A DNA stretch of 45,883 nucleotides. Source: an uncultured Bdellovibrionales bacterium (lineage in GTDB: Bacteria > Bdellovibrionota > Bdellovibrionia > Bdellovibrionales > UBA1609). Under the pieces are notes generated by a model. It was not told where the DNA came from, did no database searches, and saw only the letters and a program-made list of their open reading frames with translations. The DNA lies in NCBI GenBank assembly GCA_937936325.1, contig CALGWV010000018.1:1-45883 (forward strand), given 5' to 3'. Position numbers and translations under genes: made by a program. Positions 7,262-41,523 of the stretch are shown here, one piece after another; positions within the stretch are counted from its first letter, which is position 1; every line of letters starts with the position of its first letter.

Positions 7262-7414
7262 TTGAGTTTAGCTTTCGAGAAGAGCTCGAATTACAAGTTT
7301 GAATTGAGTGTGCAAAGTGTATTGCCAGTACATTTACTCATGCTGTGATAGGGGAGACGACTTGCGGCCACGAACGTGCTTCTAATTCGAGTGCTTCACG
7401 AAAGCTAAACTCAA
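7262..7414 (+). repeat. Family-1 rod-like palindromic element, diverged copy A
   Basis: 36-bp inverted arms 7262-7297/7379-7414 (4 mismatches); loop contains GAGACGACTTGCGGCC shared with copy B; lies between convergent genes. Confidence 0.8.
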
Positions 7415-17001: not shown

Positions 17002-17331
17002 GAATTATAATCTACATTTCTTATCTGTGTCGAGACTGATTTTGCTTAAAGTGTGGGTTCAATTAAAATTCCTGCTCATTTTTTTAAGTATGATGATTCT
17101 AAAGCCTAAAATGGAGAGTTTTATTTTTTAATATAAGAGGTAACTTTGAAAAATTTAGTAAATAAGCCTTTAAACTCTATATCAGAAAACTTCTCTTTCT
17201 GTCTCTTGAAGTAGGTAAGGTTGAGTTTACGGCCTTCAAGTCTTTGTTCATTCAAAGTTCCAACCTCAAAGCTATACATAGAAATACGATGAAAAATGTC
17301 AGCCCCGGAGCGAGCTTCAAAATTTTTAATA

Positions 17332-17513
17332 GAGACTGTGGAAGATTTATTTGTCCAAACGAGAAAAGCAGCTCACGAGAAAGTAGATTGCCCACTGAGA
17401 AAATTAAATGAAGGCTTAGTTGTGCTCAGATCAGATTTTAATTTTGTCAGTGGGCAATCTAGTTTTGACTTGAAATGTTTTTTGTAGTGGAGAAACGAAT
17501 CTTCCACAGCCCC
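17332..17513. mobile_element. Family-2 MITE-like element, copy 1
   Basis: 26-bp terminal inverted repeats (21/26 match), TA on both flanks, internal 25-bp stem 17384-17408/17437-17461; homologous to 19621-19785. Confidence 0.8.
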
Positions 17514-17516
17514 TAG

Positions 17517-18224
17517 TTAAAAAGAAACTTCAAAAAAATTTCTGATCAGAGTTTGGAGCTCATTTTTAGTAAATGGGTAAGGACCTTTTTTGTAACATTC
17601 TAGATTTAACTTATGTCCATTTAGCATATTTTCTGAAAGAGAGCCAACTTCAAAAACATATTTACTGACGCTATAATTTTTCTTTAAGGTAGTTGGGAGT
17701 CTGAAAATATTTGTACTGCCTAGATGGTGCTCAGTGCTAAATGAAGTCGCTTCTGGAATAACATAAGGAGTTTGCTCTAAGTTTTTATTTTCAACTAGAA
17801 TTCGAACTTGGCAATAGGGTTTCATTTTTCTAAAAAAACAGGGTGAGAAGATTTTACTTTGAGAACATCCAAACTCGGCAGCAAGTTGAACCTGGCTTAA
17901 AATATTTTCATTATAAAATAAGTTTCTAGCATCAGAATTTGAAAAGTAAGTACTAGGTTTTTGGCCTGTAAGTTCCAAACTATAAGTTTGATCTAAGGTC
18001 CAAGGGGTAATGTTTGAGAAAACAAAAACTTTATTTTTGTCAAAAAGCTTGTAGTAAGTTCTTGTGGGTTCATAAGTGGAGTTTATGAGTTCAGAAACAG
18101 AAGGAAGAAAATCTGTCCAAGTGAGCTCAGCTTTAGAGGCGGTGGTAAACTTTAGCAATAAGAAAAAGCAGAAAAAACTCTGAATAGTAATGGCTTTAAT
18201 ACTCACCACAATAAACCCCAACAA
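17517..18224 (-). CDS. Hypothetical secreted protein
   Basis: Signal-like N-terminus; overlaps aldolase stop; GTG at 18206 is an alternative start. Confidence 0.62.
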   Translation of the reverse strand: MLGFIVVSIKAITIQSFFCFFLLLKFTTASKAELTWTDFLPSVSELINSTYEPTRTYYKLFDKNKVFVFSNITPWTLDQTYSLELTGQKPSTYFSNSDARNLFYNENILSQVQLAAEFGCSQSKIFSPCFFRKMKPYCQVRILVENKNLEQTPYVIPEATSFSTEHHLGSTNIFRLPTTLKKNYSVSKYVFEVGSLSENMLNGHKLNLECYKKGPYPFTKNELQTLIRNFFEVSF

Positions 18225-19438: not shown

Positions 19439-19620
19439 TAGTAGATGTTAGACCCCTTCAGGTATAACAAATCTTATTGCTACCATAGATAGTCCTTAAG
19501 TCTAATGCTGTTAAAGCTTTTCAATTAGATTTTTCCCACATAGTTTAAATGTAAGGCTTTTAGAGGGGGCGCTTTGTAAAAAGTGTATAAAAAGCTTTTA
19601 TTTTAAAGATTCTAAATTTA

Positions 19621-19785
19621 AAGGCTTTGGAAGATTCGTTTGTCCAAATGAGAAATTAGATTGCGCACAGACAAAGTAAATTGAAGGCTGAGTTGTGACT
19701 CGGTCGAGTTTAATTTTGTCAGTGCCCACTTTGGTTTCGACTTGAGATGTTGTTTCTAGTGGACAAACGAATCTTCCACAGCCTC
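19621..19785. mobile_element. Family-2 MITE-like element, copy 2
   Basis: AAGGCTTTGGAAGATTCGTTTGTCCA ... TGGACAAACGAATCTTCCACAGCCTC (24/26), TA flanks. Confidence 0.82.
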
Positions 19786-19830
19786 TAAGGTTTTAGAACG
19801 TAGAACAACAAGTAAATAGGAGGATAAGGT

Positions 19831-21555
19831 ATGAGATATTTTCTAGTTTTTAGTTTGGCTTTGTTATTTAGCCCATGGGTTTCTCAAGCTACTGTCACTT
19901 GTGACTTGAATGCACAGGACAGTTGTGAATTCCAGGTCAATTTAAATCCAGTCGGGACGGTTTTTGTACATGGTATAAATATCATCGGAGCTGCTGGAGA
20001 AATACAGGTTAGATCAAATACAGGTTTGCCTGTCATGATGAGTGAAGTGCATTATCTCACATCGCAATTTGATCCAAATAATCAGCAACATACATATAAC
20101 ATGACATCTGCAACTCAATCTTCGAGTCAGGTTCCAACGTGGGCAAGGGCTGCTCAGCAGTACTTTAGTGGGCAGTATGAAAACTCTTCTGTGAGTATTT
20201 TTATTCATCGAGCCTCATATGTACAAAATAGCCCTGCTTCAGATGTTTTAACTGTGACACCTCAAGCCTGGACACCTCCTGCTGAGTCGACCTCTGATTT
20301 TCAGTTTGTTCCAATGCCAAACCATACACCTGCGCAAACAAATCAAGTTTGCTCCTACAGGAGTAGCTTTGGGGTAGATCCCATTTACGTACGTCCAGGT
20401 GAGAAAGTCGACTGGCCTTTTGGTGAGCCTACTAAGACAGTGAGTCCGGAGGGTTGTGAATCTGGTTATGAAGGTACCGTGACTACCGTAAGTCAGAAGT
20501 TTTGGACTCAAGAGATGGGAGCTGACTGCAATTTAAAGCAAAATATACTTAATGAGTCAGAGAAAGTTGTTGATAAAATATATGACTGCACGCCCATTGT
20601 TAGCCCACAATCTCGAAAATCTGTCCCTGAAATTTCTCCAACTCCTCATGTTTACACTTGCCGCGTAGGTGGGACAATTTTAACTGGCGGAGGTTATGCT
20701 CAAGATTTAGCTGACCCTGTGCTAGAAAGTTTTCATGATTATTGTTCAAAGGGGTACTCTGGAGAAATTGTAGCTCTTACTCCTAAGTATAAATATTATG
20801 ATTGCAAAAATTTTGACTATGCTGAGTTAAATGAAGCTTACCCAGAAAAATATGGGCACAATCAAACCAAAATAGTGGACCGATGCACTCCGGCACCTCT
20901 TTCTTCTTGTTCTCATCCTCGGACTGGGGCAGAAGTCGTTCACGGTGAGCAGATTTTTGTTCGAGATCGTAATAGGTCTAAGCGCAAGAAAAGAAAGTGT
21001 TCCAATAGACGAAATGCTGAGGTGGTTTATGATATTTTCCATACAAAAATAGCAAAAAAATGTAACGGAAAAACAGGTTATTTTGAAGATGTTTATGTAA
21101 ACAGCAGTCTCTTAGAAACTTTTGGCAAGATTAAGCAAAAAGCTGAATGTCGTAAAAAGCACGAAAGAAGACGAGAGCGCGAAGCTCGAAGACAAGAAAA
21201 AGAGAGAGAGCAAAAAAGGCGTGAAGTTCGAAGACAAGAAAAAGAGAGAGAGCAAAAAAGGCGTGAAGTTCGAAGACAAGAAAGAGAGAGAGAGCAAAAA
21301 CGCGAAGCTCGAAGACAAGAAAAAGAGAGAGAGCAAAGGCGTAAGGCTCAAAGAGACAGGTCTCAGGTTCGAAAAAAAGAGAAGCCTAAATCCAAGGTTT
21401 CGTCTACTCCTAAAAAAACAAAAAATAAGCCAAGGAAAAGAAATGAGTCTGCAGCAGGTAAACCTCAACCGCACCCAGAGTGTATTTGGGATATAAGTAT
21501 AGAGGACTGGGATTGTGGCAGACGTCACGCCCCTACAGCAGACTCAAGCAAATAA
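19831..21555 (+). CDS. Secreted Cys-rich protein with three 4-Cys modules and a charged E/R/K repeat
   Basis: AGGAGG RBS, signal peptide MRYFLVFSLALLFSPWVSQA, 16 Cys, own terminator. Confidence 0.8.
   Translation: MRYFLVFSLALLFSPWVSQATVTCDLNAQDSCEFQVNLNPVGTVFVHGINIIGAAGEIQVRSNTGLPVMMSEVHYLTSQFDPNNQQHTYNMTSATQSSSQVPTWARAAQQYFSGQYENSSVSIFIHRASYVQNSPASDVLTVTPQAWTPPAESTSDFQFVPMPNHTPAQTNQVCSYRSSFGVDPIYVRPGEKVDWPFGEPTKTVSPEGCESGYEGTVTTVSQKFWTQEMGADCNLKQNILNESEKVVDKIYDCTPIVSPQSRKSVPEISPTPHVYTCRVGGTILTGGGYAQDLADPVLESFHDYCSKGYSGEIVALTPKYKYYDCKNFDYAELNEAYPEKYGHNQTKIVDRCTPAPLSSCSHPRTGAEVVHGEQIFVRDRNRSKRKKRKCSNRRNAEVVYDIFHTKIAKKCNGKTGYFEDVYVNSSLLETFGKIKQKAECRKKHERRREREARRQEKEREQKRREVRRQEKEREQKRREVRRQEREREQKREARRQEKEREQRRKAQRDRSQVRKKEKPKSKVSSTPKKTKNKPRKRNESAAGKPQPHPECIWDISIEDWDCGRRHAPTADSSK
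21181..21342 (+). repeat. Coding tandem repeat, four units of 42/42/39/39 bp
   Basis: GAAGYTCGAAGACAAGAAARAGAGAGAGAGCAAA... encoding E(A/V)RRQE(K/R)EREQKRR. Confidence 0.95.
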
Positions 21556-37649: not shown

Positions 37650-37873
37650 TGTTAAGCACTTTTAATTCTTGTGTCTTCTTTGTGAACTCTTGAAGTCATT
37701 TCCCACTGGATAAAAAAAGCCCGCTTTCGGCCGCAAGTCGTCTCATGGAATGTATTATGAATACATTCCACACCCCAAGGTACGCCTTGCCGCGACGCTC
37801 AAAGCTTTCTTTTCTAGTGGGAAATGACTTCAAGAGTTCACAAAGAAGACACAAGAATCAAAAATGCTTAACA
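37650..37873 (-). repeat. Family-1 rod-like palindromic element, copy B
   Basis: About 70-bp inverted arms containing a 43-bp perfect stretch, around an 83-nt core (37721-37803). Confidence 0.92.
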
Positions 37874-37892
37874 TGCTAATAATTTTATTCTA

Positions 37893-38060
37893 AGGCGTGT
37901 CCCGAATTCTATATGGTGCTACAAAATACAGGTCGTATTCAAAGTCAGTGAGCGCAGGTCGAATAAATTTTTAGCTAGCCATGGGCTTACTTACAAATTT
38001 GAGAGGGCGAGCATTGTTGAGTTTGGATCTGAGATGGGTTATGTAGCTTTATGACCTGAT
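37893..38060. mobile_element. Family-3 MITE-like relic (right end decayed, boundary approximate)
   Basis: Begins CTA|AGGCGTGTCCCGAATTC; shares CGCAGGTYGAATAAATTTT, TACTTACAAATTT and GCGAGYATTGTT with 19268-19327. Confidence 0.6.
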
Positions 38061-38314
38061 GCCGTACCAAAATGGCATTACTTTTGGCTCCATGTGCTCA
38101 TTCGAGGGTCGGAGAAGTATAGAGGTGGAAATACTTGATGAGCAACAGATATTAAAAACTAAAATTATATCCTCAGATGACTGCTCATCTGGTCAATTCC
38201 AGTAATATGTTCGTGAGCCCAAATCACAATCACTCTCTTGGAAATACTTACTATTTTAAAACTTCTAATAGTAGAGGTCTGTAAGTGTATTAGTAAATAA
38301 GATACAATCAATTC

Positions 38315-39532
38315 ATGAATAAAAAAATTGCAATTATTGGGGCTGGACTATCAGGTTTAGCAGCAGCCTTAGAGCTCAAGAAACTAGGCCATCAAATTAA
38401 AGTTTTTGATCAGTCTGTTAAAGTGGGTGGGCGAGTTCAATCGGATCATATCGATGGTTATACCTTGGATCGAGGTTTTCAGGTTCTCCTTCCGTCCTAT
38501 GAAATGGCGCAACATTATTTTGATTATGAAGATCTAAAACTCTCGGGTTTTCAGCCTGGAGCGCAGATCTATAATCAGTCCTCACAAAAATTTAATATAA
38601 TATCAGACCCCCTTCGAGACCCATCAACACTGTTAGTTACAGTTTTTAATTCGGTGGCGAGTCTCAAAGACAAATATTTGATTTTAAAATTAAAACTAAA
38701 TACAAAAAATTTTGAGATGAAGAGTCTTTCAAATACAACGACTTATTCAGGGCTTAAAGAGTTTGGGTTTTCAGACAAATTTATTAACGGATTTTTAAAA
38801 CCCTTTTTCTCAGGTGTCTTTCTGGAAAAGGAATTATCTCTAGACTTTAATTTTTTCAAGTATTTATTCTCAAAGTTTAATTCTTCCCAAGCGGTGCTAC
38901 CCCTAGGTGGGATGGGTGCACTTTCAGAACAAATGGCTAAGTCTCTATCTCAGGAGGAACTCAAACTAGGTATCAAGGTTGAAAGTTTCACACAAAACTC
39001 AGTCCAGACTCAAAATGCAGGTGAAAAATTTGATCATGTGATCTGCGCCATGGGGCAAGATCAAGCTCAAAAAGTTGGAGGTTTAAAGCTTAAGGCTGAG
39101 TCTGAGTCTGCTGAAACATATAGGCCAGTCGTCACTTCCTACTTTACAACTCCATCTGAGAAACACTCCTCTAAATATTTATATCTATTACCAGGTCATA
39201 AAGTGAATCACGTGGCTTGTCTTACAGCAGTCCAAAAAAGCTATGCTCCAAAAGGGCAAGTACTCTATTCAGTGAACTCCATAGAGTCAGAGGCTAGAGA
39301 TCCAAAAGAAATAATCCAAAGCCTAGTTCCAGTTTTTGGCGAAACAGAGATGAAAACATGGAGTCATCTCAAAACCTATGAAATTAAAAAAGCTCTTCCT
39401 AAAAACTTCCTAAATCAAGATAAAACTTTATCCCAAAATGGAATATTATATATCGGAGACTACACTCAACACCCATCCATCCAAGGCGCACTGGAATCAG
39501 GATATAAATGTGCCCAAGAAATTAAAAAATAA
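38315..39532 (+). CDS. FAD-dependent oxidoreductase (amine oxidase/phytoene dehydrogenase-like)
   Basis: IAIIGAGLSGL, VGGRV, LDRGFQVL, GDY...SIQGALESG. Confidence 0.88.
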   Translation: MNKKIAIIGAGLSGLAAALELKKLGHQIKVFDQSVKVGGRVQSDHIDGYTLDRGFQVLLPSYEMAQHYFDYEDLKLSGFQPGAQIYNQSSQKFNIISDPLRDPSTLLVTVFNSVASLKDKYLILKLKLNTKNFEMKSLSNTTTYSGLKEFGFSDKFINGFLKPFFSGVFLEKELSLDFNFFKYLFSKFNSSQAVLPLGGMGALSEQMAKSLSQEELKLGIKVESFTQNSVQTQNAGEKFDHVICAMGQDQAQKVGGLKLKAESESAETYRPVVTSYFTTPSEKHSSKYLYLLPGHKVNHVACLTAVQKSYAPKGQVLYSVNSIESEARDPKEIIQSLVPVFGETEMKTWSHLKTYEIKKALPKNFLNQDKTLSQNGILYIGDYTQHPSIQGALESGYKCAQEIKK

Positions 39533-39713: not shown

Positions 39714-39908
39714 TTTTAAAGCTTGAGATTGATTTTGGATTTCTTAAAGATGTTGAATAAGGCGGAAGCGTTGAACGTCGCGGCAGCGCGTATCTTGGTG
39801 TGTGATATGTACACATAGCACATTTCAGGAGACGTTCTGCGGCCGAAAGTGGGCTTCCATCTTATTCAACATCTTTAAGAAATTCAAAATCAATCTTAAG
39901 CTTTAAAA
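39714..39908 (+). repeat. Family-1 rod-like palindromic element, copy C
   Basis: 56-bp arms 39714-39769/39853-39908 (4 mismatches), 83-nt core 65/83 identical to reverse complement of copy B core. Confidence 0.92.
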
Positions 39909-40068
39909 ATAGACATGATCCACTCATATTGGCGTTGTAGCACCGCCATTCTCAAGATGTAGGCCATATTTTGGGATTTAGCGATATTTTTTTAAATTTT
40001 CTCAACCAAATCTTCATTATTTTTTAACTTCAGGCTAATTTACCGTGCAACAACACCACTCATATTTA

Positions 40069-41523
40069 TTATTTTCTTTTCCAAGTATTAAATTTTTCTA
40101 GCCAAGGAAAAACCCAGTCGGGTTTATTCTTCATTTTCCATTGACCAGCTGCAAACTTATTAGCCTCTCCCATGGTCGGATAGGGATGTATGGTGGACAT
40201 AATTTTGTTTAACCCAAAACCATGCTTCATAGCTGAACTAAATTCCAGTAACATGTCTCCCGCCTTTGAAGCCACAATCGTAGCTCCTAAGATTGTATCC
40301 TTACCTGGGGCCGTCAATACTCGAACCAATCCATGATCTGCCCCGTCGGCAATGGCTCGGTCCAAATCATCAATCCCATAGGTAGTCACTTCCACTGGAA
40401 TATTTTGAGCCTTGGCTTCACTTTCAGTTAAACCCACTGAAGCGACTTCGGGATCTGTGAAAGTGACTTTAGGGACGACTTTATATTCAGCCTTGAATTT
40501 TTTTAATGGTTGGAAGAGGGAATTCGTGGCGCAGAACCAAGCTTGGTGAGCCGCCGTGTGGGTGAACTGAAATGGCCCTGCAACATCCCCGCATGCAAAA
40601 ATATTTTTATATTTCGTAGTTCTTAAGTAAGGATCTACTTTTATGGTTCCGTTTTTATTAAATTCAACCTCAAGCTCTTCAAGCCCAAAACCCTTAGTGT
40701 TAGGGCGACGGCCGAGCGCCATTAAGCACTGGTCAAATTCAACTTCGACAATAGTTCCGTCTGCTTTTTTGGTAATGAGCTTTGGACCTTTTTCAAAACT
40801 ATCTGCAGAATGTCCTGTAAGGACTTCTACACCTTCAGCTCTAAGTTGAGCTTCTATAATTTGAGCCACCTCAGGATCCTCTCCGGCTAAAATATTTGAG
40901 CCCCTTTCAATAATACTGACTTTTGAGCCTAGGCGGGCAAAGCACTGAGCCATTTCACAGCCTATAGGCCCACCACCTAAGACGACGAACCTTTTGGGGA
41001 GTTCTTTAAGTTCCCAGAGGTTGTCCGAGGTGAGATAAGGGACTTGGTCTAAACCTTTAAAAGGGACGACTAAGGGTTTAGCCCCAGTAGCCACGACTAT
41101 ATTCTTAGTGGTTAAAACTTGATCATTCACCTTAACTTCATAGGGGCTTAAAATTTGACCATAACCTGTGAGGCAATCTACCCCTAAAGAAGTATATCGT
41201 TCAATGGAATCATGAGGTTCAATTTTTGAAATTACACTTTGTATGCGAGACATGATTTTTTGAAAATCAAACTGAATGTCCGTATCAGTCAGTCCGTACT
41301 TCGCCGCATTTTTAGATTGATATAAAACTTTGCAGCTTTGAATTAAAGCCTTGCTTGGTACACACCCAGTATTTAGGCAATCGCCTCCCATTTTATGGGC
41401 CTCAACAAGAGCGACTTTGGCTTTAAGTAGTGCCCCAATATAAGAGGTCACAAGCCCGCCACTGCCGGCTCCAAGTATAATCATATTATAATCAGTTTTA
41501 TTAGGTTTTTTGAATTTTTTCAC
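40069..41523 (-). CDS. Class I pyridine nucleotide-disulfide oxidoreductase (MerA/Lpd-like)
   Basis: GAGSGG, GGDCLNTGCVPSK, GGGPIG, IHPYPT; no C-terminal Cys-Cys. Confidence 0.9.
   Translation of the reverse strand: MKKFKKPNKTDYNMIILGAGSGGLVTSYIGALLKAKVALVEAHKMGGDCLNTGCVPSKALIQSCKVLYQSKNAAKYGLTDTDIQFDFQKIMSRIQSVISKIEPHDSIERYTSLGVDCLTGYGQILSPYEVKVNDQVLTTKNIVVATGAKPLVVPFKGLDQVPYLTSDNLWELKELPKRFVVLGGGPIGCEMAQCFARLGSKVSIIERGSNILAGEDPEVAQIIEAQLRAEGVEVLTGHSADSFEKGPKLITKKADGTIVEVEFDQCLMALGRRPNTKGFGLEELEVEFNKNGTIKVDPYLRTTKYKNIFACGDVAGPFQFTHTAAHQAWFCATNSLFQPLKKFKAEYKVVPKVTFTDPEVASVGLTESEAKAQNIPVEVTTYGIDDLDRAIADGADHGLVRVLTAPGKDTILGATIVASKAGDMLLEFSSAMKHGFGLNKIMSTIHPYPTMGEANKFAAGQWKMKNKPDWVFPWLEKFNTWKRK

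Follow-up and report, generated by a model that had tools for sequence, protein, structure and literature searches.

The 195-base palindrome at positions 39714-39908, here called copy C, is a member of an intergenic foldback repeat family that occurs in multiple copies in Bdellovibrio-like bacteria. Our analyses support that the core of this repeat, which is about 90 nt long, is under selection for a fold on one strand. To the fuller claim, namely that the core is selected for a one-strand fold of what is likely single-stranded or extruded DNA that a putative protein would read, we give about an even chance. A sequence-only reading of the window, i.e., of the whole 45,883-nt stretch of DNA that was analyzed, had proposed selection on a single-stranded, strand-specific fold. 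This proposal stood for the core, and it did so family-wide, but two of the three base pairs cited in its favor did not.

Copy C and its family in the host genome

Copy C consists of two arms of 56 nt each (39714-39769 and 39853-39908), which are 93% complementary and enclose 83 nt. Its plus strand is predicted to fold into a single rod of −110.8 kcal/mol (z −17), compared with a predicted −89.3 kcal/mol for the minus strand; the rod of ~195 nt with internal loops that had been described before is thus correct. Read against the other members of the family, copy C divides into a copy-specific left arm with a T-run at its start (39714-39765), a conserved core of 91 nt (39766-39856) and a right arm complementary to the left one (39857-39908). 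On the plus strand the core forms an imperfect, unbranched hairpin. At its base, the neck (39766-39776) pairs AAGC with GCTT at 39853-39856, has a left bulge of 3 nt and contains the mismatch A39774.G39851 as well as the covarying pair A39775-T39850 (GC 17, AU 11, GU 4; n=35). Further up follows an invariant motif, with CGTATC (39789-39794) as its left strand and GAGACG (39829-39834; GAAGACG in many relatives) as its right strand, in which A39792 stands opposite G39831. The apical stem in the family register (39795-39828) features the purine.purine mismatch A39806.G39819 and a loop at 39810-39815, and its length varies across the family from 4 bp to more than 30 bp. On the way down, a TGC pairing strand and then a conserved right-hand bulge of 2-3 nt (GGC) occupy 39838-39845. 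Three mismatches persist among the copies of this genome: the A.G within CGTATC/GAGACG in 35 of 36, the A.G at the neck in 34 of 35 and the purine.purine mismatch near the tip in 24 of 36. G.T pairs persist likewise, in 12-15 of 36 copies at each of four positions.

The 5′ neighbor of copy C is a flavin amine-oxidase-family gene on the plus strand (38315-39532), whose stop codon lies 182 nt from the arm. The 3′ neighbor, a pyridine nucleotide-disulphide oxidoreductase gene on the minus strand (40069-41523), is directed into the element. Convergent genes do flank copy C, as had been pointed out earlier, but this setting is atypical and applies to 8 of the 34 copies with both neighbors known. 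DNA contigs over the copy C region contained no joint bypassing the element, an observation that is uninformative. A distinct 128-bp MITE (39931-40058) stands between copy C and the stop codon that follows, with 16-bp terminal repeats, a 9-bp target duplication at 39922-39930 and 40059-40067, and eight further copies of 86-97% identity; without it, copy C would stand ~24 nt from the stop codon, a typical distance for the family.

The host genome is marine, 2.06 Mb in size and 99% complete. It likely belongs to the Bdellovibrionales, as the two best matches of its FolE2 come from this order at 49-52% identity, with gammaproteobacterial matches close behind. Iterated nhmmer searches (E < 0.01) located 42 family loci in it, every one between called ORFs, and 38 of these have arms of at least 30 bp (median arm 52, including 5 core bases). 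The window also holds copy B on the minus strand (37650-37873; core 37717-37807), with arms of ~67 bp and, in a shifted register, an 11-bp apical stem private to this copy, and a degenerate copy A on the plus strand (7262-7414; core 7295-7381). Among the best 19 copies, core likeness was 74% and arm likeness 49%, with the arms within one copy 94% complementary. The arms of different copies are barely alignable and share a loose common pattern only (Mantel 0.12, p = 0.048).

Other repeats of the window were seen alongside. A second rod-shaped family of ~190 bp with TAGGGG...CCCCTA ends (17323-17522 and 19610-19798) has some 35-40 genome copies and also folds better on one strand. A third, ~170 bp long with GAATTCG near both ends, is found at 37890-38050 and in ~18 copies, and a short repeat at ~38062-38098 recurs near contig ends. 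Four tandem units of 39-42 nt (21163-21337) lie inside a 574-aa ORF (19831-21555). Hairpins in the flanks of the element were stronger on the 3′ side, where they may be coding sequence.

Selection on the core and drift of the arms

The core alignment comprised 36 of the 42 loci, six partial or decayed cores being omitted. A 32-pair unbranched structure, drawn by hand from the same 36-core alignment on which it was scored, was 83% paired versus 75.7% in shuffles, and its covariation of 0.338 versus 0.210 was reached by none of 500 shuffles, with kinship ignored. Slid-register controls gave covariation of at most 0.118. RNAalifold, which the sequence-only reading had named as a check on the genomic copies, independently recovered 16 of the 32 pairs, 12 of them with double changes.

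The same reading had quoted six base differences between copies B and C as three covarying pairs. All six are present in the sequence, and pair 17/68 (columns 26-79) is indeed a family pair, Watson-Crick in 31 of 36 copies (GC 18, UA 8, AU 5). Pairs 36/56 and 43/49 (columns 45-67 and 52-59), in contrast, fall away as covariation. Both are part of a register that is offset by 7 nt and fully formed in copy B alone; over the 36 copies this register is 53.3% paired versus 52.5% in shuffles, 141 of 500 shuffles were as high, and the predicted fold of copy C does not use it. The perfect 11-bp apical stem described for copy B is present with 11/11 pairs; it looks as if several bases had been corrected at once in this copy only.

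On a tree of the 36 cores, changes from Watson-Crick pairs to G.T outnumbered those to A.C by 58 to 27 (parsimony, averaged; p = 0.001). When the ancestral pair was A-T, 20 changes led to G.T and 4 to A.C. In unpaired core columns G>A changes (30) exceeded C>T changes (14), and neither C>T nor A>G was in excess on the core strand; strand-biased deamination is hence no explanation of the G.T bias. The core strand was, moreover, the better folder in 35 of 38 copies with RNA parameters and in 36 of 38 with DNA parameters.

A G-U bias had also been claimed for the arms. Its counts are correct, as three of the four arm mismatches in copy C are G.T and the fourth is C.A, and the outer arm of copy B has two G.T and one A.C. 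However, three out of four lies within chance, and all 38 copies gave 53:36 (p = 0.09). Elsewhere, the lean toward G.T was 42:24 in 16 other genomes (p = 0.036), a count that omits G026, whose arms align poorly without gaps, and 11:8 in G025. Arm pairing in general is weak evidence of selection, because arms drift to near-random identity yet stay 94-99% paired. For palindromic repeats, it is kept mismatches that separate selection from repair, and perfect arms prove little.

The complete genome G025 (48 matches, 45 analyzed) illustrates both behaviors. Its cores are 94% alike, and the inner 40 nt of its arms 47% versus 45% for shuffled arms, with 26 mismatches in 2412 arm pairs. Conservation in place was seen in one genome pair, G306 and G312 (2 matches each), at a site behind dapB where 77 core bases are identical and fourfold sites differ by 55% in dapA and by 53% in dapB. 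The arms at this site differ by substitutions and indels, yet they still pair. An identical core at a fixed site requires host-level selection or conversion; pure selfish copying would not suffice. The invariance of the core, among copies and, in this one genome pair, in place, is strong evidence of selection.

Could the pattern arise with no selection at all, from recent amplification and a hairpin correction that mimics covariation? Such a process accounts for the arms and for the private 11-bp stem of copy B. Correction would, however, erase mismatches, and yet 35 of 36 copies retain the A.G of the motif, which is also preserved across families; in addition, not one of 77 core bases has changed at a site whose synonymous divergence is 53%. 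We find this explanation hardly credible for the core.

For the arms, complementarity might be kept by template switching or fold-back synthesis, by which a change in one arm would be copied to the other. Template switching is described as perfecting imperfect inverted repeats in the cited part of PMC7202029. Under fold-back copying the arms would drift at about the neutral rate. Arm-to-arm copying fits the near-neutral drift of the arms, since stepwise compensation would hold them below the neutral rate. SbcD scored above cut-off in 1 of 109 genomes of the family. In E. coli, SbcCD clears long palindromic structures, according to the passage cited (PMC3733652); the near-absence of SbcD may thus explain the family's wealth of long palindromes by letting them persist.

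Spread among relatives and nature of the folded molecule

A first covariance model (R1) matched 17 of 108 family-level relatives and none outside the family among 140 genomes. A second one (R2), built from the R1 matches, found 19 of the 108 and later did reveal order-level carriers, i.e., 22 of 150 genomes, which represent five families, one of these through no more than a single weak match; in two large families of the order R2 found the element in 0 of 42 and 0 of 20 genomes. Carrier genomes have from 1 to at least 48 matches, and copy number ranges from 0 to about 50 across sister genera. BLAST of copy C against 60 relatives yielded short arm-like matches only, and one strict pattern scan of metagenomes returned 2 matches, both genuine copies, each with arms of its own. 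The element was unmatched in viral contigs, phages and plasmids, and no Rfam family reached its gathering score, with sub-threshold miRNA-hairpin scores only. Among the listings and selected passages of the literature on Bdellovibrio and Bdellovibrionota repeats, on REPIN/RAYT/TIR and on TIRYT/TIRtron, no description of the family was found. Two of the listed G026 matches are one copy, because the contig ends there (L199, G026:C4:544500-554054) in ~4.7 kb that are perfectly duplicated in inverted orientation, which is likely an assembly artefact.

In an alignment fitted to the model, the same fold holds in 90 distinct non-self cores from other genomes, and four CGTAT/AGACG pairs are kept in 89-90 of these 90. 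The tip is dispensable; it measures 4-7 bp in G043 and G054, and G018 and G051 have long insertions in it. In another family, minimal copies are reduced to the motif, 4-7 bp and a triloop, cGAAg or similar. What stays constant throughout is the invariant helix, including its A.G mismatch, together with the right-hand bulge, which keeps a fixed distance from it. We suggest that helix and bulge form a putative protein recognition site, which would serve copying, a host role or both. CGTAT/AGACG with the A.G mismatch and the bulge, ~60 nt in its minimal form, offers a short target for finding the reading protein.

Loop usage bears on whether the folded molecule is DNA or RNA. The 171 apical loops from 20 sources include 48 GNA triloops (41 closed by C-G) and 30 other triloops, 27 GNRA, 14 GNYA and 0 UNCG loops, where counts within a genome are related, cGNAg occurs in 10 of 20 genomes and the terminator control comprised only 21 hairpins. 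On the opposite strand only 4 GNNA loops were found. In this genome, GNA or GNNA occurs in only 5 of 38 loops, and the 6-nt loop of copy C is not among them. As described in the cited portion of PMC13037366, d(GCGNAGC) and d(GCGNNAGC) are extra-stable as DNA and much less so as RNA, and functional RNAs favor GNRA and UNCG loops. As the same source reports, GNA-type DNA loops form the tips of phage priming sites and of N4 promoters, and SSB binds to them poorly.

The strand carried by transcripts was estimated from gene orientation. With simple ORF calls, the 3′ neighbor pointed into the element in 111 of 171 copies and away from it in 48 (12 unclassified), so that read-through RNA would mostly carry the unselected strand. 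Co-directional contexts were antisense in 54 cases versus sense in 23 (p = 5e-4). The orientation bias is absent in this genome taken alone (21 vs 18). Sigma-70-like sites pointing into the element were equally common on the 5′ side (12) and the 3′ side (13) of 148 copies, and terminator-like sites (3 vs 1) showed no asymmetry either. No sigma-54-like sites were found, and copy C has no promoter-like site in front of it. We hold DNA to be about twice as probable as an independent RNA, and the folded molecule would hence be DNA.

The RNA account would envisage a multicopy structured RNA, protein-binding or antisense and possibly spread as cDNA, which is made from its own core-sense promoter and has an arm stem that RNase III could trim. 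The G.T bias with its persistent wobble pairs, the purine.purine internal mismatches, the 27 GNRA loops and the 77-nt core kept in place would all suit such a molecule. The same is true of RNase III in 5 of 5 carriers tested, of reverse transcriptases in 4 of 5 other carriers and of the 5′ gap, which in this genome is longer than the 3′ gap (median 182 vs 38 nt, p = 3e-5). Promoter- and terminator-like sites are symmetric, however, 78 of 171 loops are triloops and none is UNCG, and no Rfam family was hit at threshold. Furthermore, no reverse transcriptase was found here or in G079, and a copy number between 0 and about 50 among sister genera fits such an RNA poorly. We regard it as a possible explanation, though one that takes a clear second place.

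In a different scenario, the rod would act in the 3′ ends of flanking mRNAs as terminator, stabilizer or RNase III site. RNase III is present, stop codons are near on the 3′ side of the copies (median 38-42 nt) and many copies here have U-runs after the core. Yet an mRNA would usually carry the unselected strand, with its C.U and A.C mismatches (111 vs 48), and 22 of 150 copies with both neighbors lie between divergent genes. G025 lacks U-runs after the core, and both strands end in A-runs, which is also the case for the rod of copy C, where no intrinsic terminator was called. Such a function is therefore very unlikely; side effects of the element on its neighbors are likely, and these would not explain the conserved core. 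The roles offered by the sequence-only reading, i.e., terminator or stabilizer, RNase III substrate and ncRNA, hence gained no positive support, with strand, promoter and loop data against them. Its ssDNA option fared better than those built on RNA, as the loop usage fits DNA better.

Mobility and relation to known repeat systems

At the site after a NifU-like gene, the element is present in G104, the interval is empty and 2-75 nt long in G018, G105 and G107, and G106 has an unrelated palindrome; 3 of 5 genomes of the genus are thus empty. Core similarity did not support orthology of the NifU-site copies in G000 and G104, and other cross-genus shared sites amounted to about the chance number by a rough estimate. 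Direct repeats indicative of target duplication equaled the null in G000 and G025. Orientation relative to replication in G025 was 20 vs 28 (p = 0.31); a lagging-strand intermediate might show a bias. We also rejected the arms as guides for, or copies of, other genomic DNA, as matches at E ≤ 0.05 were at most 33 nt long. Arms newly made from target DNA were discarded as a general rule, because arms are related among copies in G018, G026, G079 and G025. In G025 arm lengths fall into classes near 45 and 68, a 22-nt periodicity that the added TIR explains and that is absent here. Secondary insertions or duplications in cores were noticed within a few bases of the foot of the CGTAT/AGACG helix at L390, L391, L279 (G025), L398 (G104) and L423 (G020). 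With about three independent events in three genera, they hint weakly that the foot of the invariant helix might be a cut site.

Some copies are linked to RAYT-like (TIRYT) transposases. In G025, the last 26-45 nt of 10 out of 45 arms match, at 89-100% identity, the repeats on either side of two RAYT-like genes of that genome, one of which is directly followed by a decayed core; in G104, TIR ends enclose about three of nine cores in the same way. In this genome the arms have no such ends, and the enzyme was not found. Against the NCBIfam model REP_Tyr_transpos, the RAYT-like genes reached at best E 1e-19 and 70.6 bits, below the cut-off of 80. Within the family TIRYT occurs in 17 of 19 carriers versus 35 of 89 non-carriers, kin not being independent.

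From these observations the element could be a plain REPIN of a TIRYT transposase, with the core as its recognition structure, the enzyme lost here and the copies decaying. The TIR-ended arms and the decayed core in G025, the like in G104 and the excess of the enzyme among carriers would all follow, as would arms that are ~10% mismatched in this genome versus 1% in G025. Most copies lack TIR ends, however, and TIR dimers wrap unrelated cargo. No intact core was found beside 41 Y1 loci (R1) or 30 TIRYT loci (R2). Moreover, 97 of the 151 order-level genomes have the enzyme, among them 31 of 42 in an element-free family, and it was not found in G000, G018, G076, G043 and G054, where the element has from 9 to more than 40 matches. 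Altogether, a dedicated TIRYT REPIN seems unlikely to us.

We rather read the TIR link as capture and not as obligate partnership, because TIRYT occurs in an element-free family, was not found in five multicopy carriers and has TIR dimers that wrap other cargo. TIRYT transposases would accordingly move some copies as TIR-bounded cargo and would not be an obligatory helper; the element is of interest as a concrete natural cargo for these enzymes in a complete genome. The search for other helpers returned no Y1 transposase or reverse transcriptase in this assembly, and neighbors common to several genomes were housekeeping genes only, again with no reverse transcriptase. A small GIY-YIG helper was dismissed, as most carriers have only a UvrC-sized match.

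REPINs are among the closest known systems. They are RAYT-linked and extragenic and form a long hairpin with compensatory changes, according to the parts of PMC3116915 and PMC5581495 cited here. Like them, the element is non-coding, extragenic, multicopy and patchy, has two inverted ends with a spacer that fold into one long hairpin, shows compensatory changes and contains no internal transposase. REPINs, however, keep their ends and vary the spacer, whereas the element keeps its centre and varies its ends, as cores are 74%/94% and arms 49%/47% alike (this genome/G025). It also has no GTAG-tagged end, and no cognate RAYT flanked by it was found in this genome. The element works like a REPIN turned inside out, and it falls outside REPINs, CGTC REPs and MITEs.

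TIRtrons, TIRYT and TIR repeat families have been described (PMC3733652; subclass 2.1, PMC6006769, both in the passages cited). A minority of G025 and G104 copies resembles them by ending in TIRs of TIRYT genes; most copies, by contrast, lack a TIR, and the core also occurs where the enzyme was not found. The published TIRtron passages mention no conserved central hairpin (PMC3733652, PMC6006769), and TIR sequences in figures and supplements of PMC3733652 may bear on the TIR comparison. CGTC REPs have an 8-9-bp stem, a 4-5-nt loop, an unpaired tag and no known dedicated transposase (PMC3733652, cited section); none is known for the element either. The reverse strand of our motif reads CGTC, and on that strand CCA follows the hairpin in G025-type copies; the CGTC of the element is, however, paired inside a 40-bp imperfect stem, and the element does not group with CGTC REPs. 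In PMC3733652, Bdellovibrio has 0 occurrences. The phage G4 origin, RSF1010 ssiA and N4 early promoters share with the element a one-strand hairpin with a GNA/GNNA cap, and the G4 origin, ssiA and N4 hairpins resist SSB and are read by primase or polymerase (PMC13037366, in the portion cited). Those are single phage or plasmid sites, unlike the element, which was unmatched in phage and plasmid collections.

Compared with DDE-type MITEs, the ends are unconserved and target-site duplications do not exceed the null. K-turn, hairpin ribozyme, loop E and relaxase nick site were rejected, their key bases not being conserved in the core. Integron attC sites, which stand in cassette arrays with an integron integrase and recombine through the bottom strand, are strand-specific imperfect DNA hairpins with conserved unpaired bases and a variable tip. 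The element would share the hairpin traits; it differs by having no cassette array, by being solitary, by occurring in both orientations, by its long outer arms and by the lack of RYYYAAC/GTTRRRY ends. Seven tyrosine recombinases of this genome are Xer-like or phage-like by eye. Retron msr-msd units have an adjacent reverse transcriptase and a1/a2 arms around msr and msd; they were rejected, since no reverse transcriptase was found in the own genome or among shared neighbors.

A fuller picture that would combine these elements is a new kind of DNA element, a module of single-stranded DNA whose hairpin is read by a protein. It would spread although it has no transposase to itself, gain its second arm by fold-back copying, hitch-hike in TIRYT repeats where these exist and then be kept base for base at fixed sites by host selection. 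Taken as a whole, we consider this picture tentative and rather doubtful. If true, the module would have a host role and could be, e.g., a site for loading or priming that resists SSB, in predatory bacteria that lack SbcCD. The family bears on what moves repeats without a dedicated transposase and on whether repeats serve their host.

TIR repeats themselves are abundant in G025, G104 and G106 (L390-L408), with 50-61 motif matches per genome versus 2-8 for a control. They wrap varied cargo, including other hairpins, and nested double TIRs occur in G104. A second RAYT-like clade (L258-L273, L275, L280) is without clear terminal repeats in the loci examined, with up to 24 Y1 matches per genome in relatives. 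Several of the TIR-capped G025 copies start with TAA, which is the stop codon of the flanking gene.
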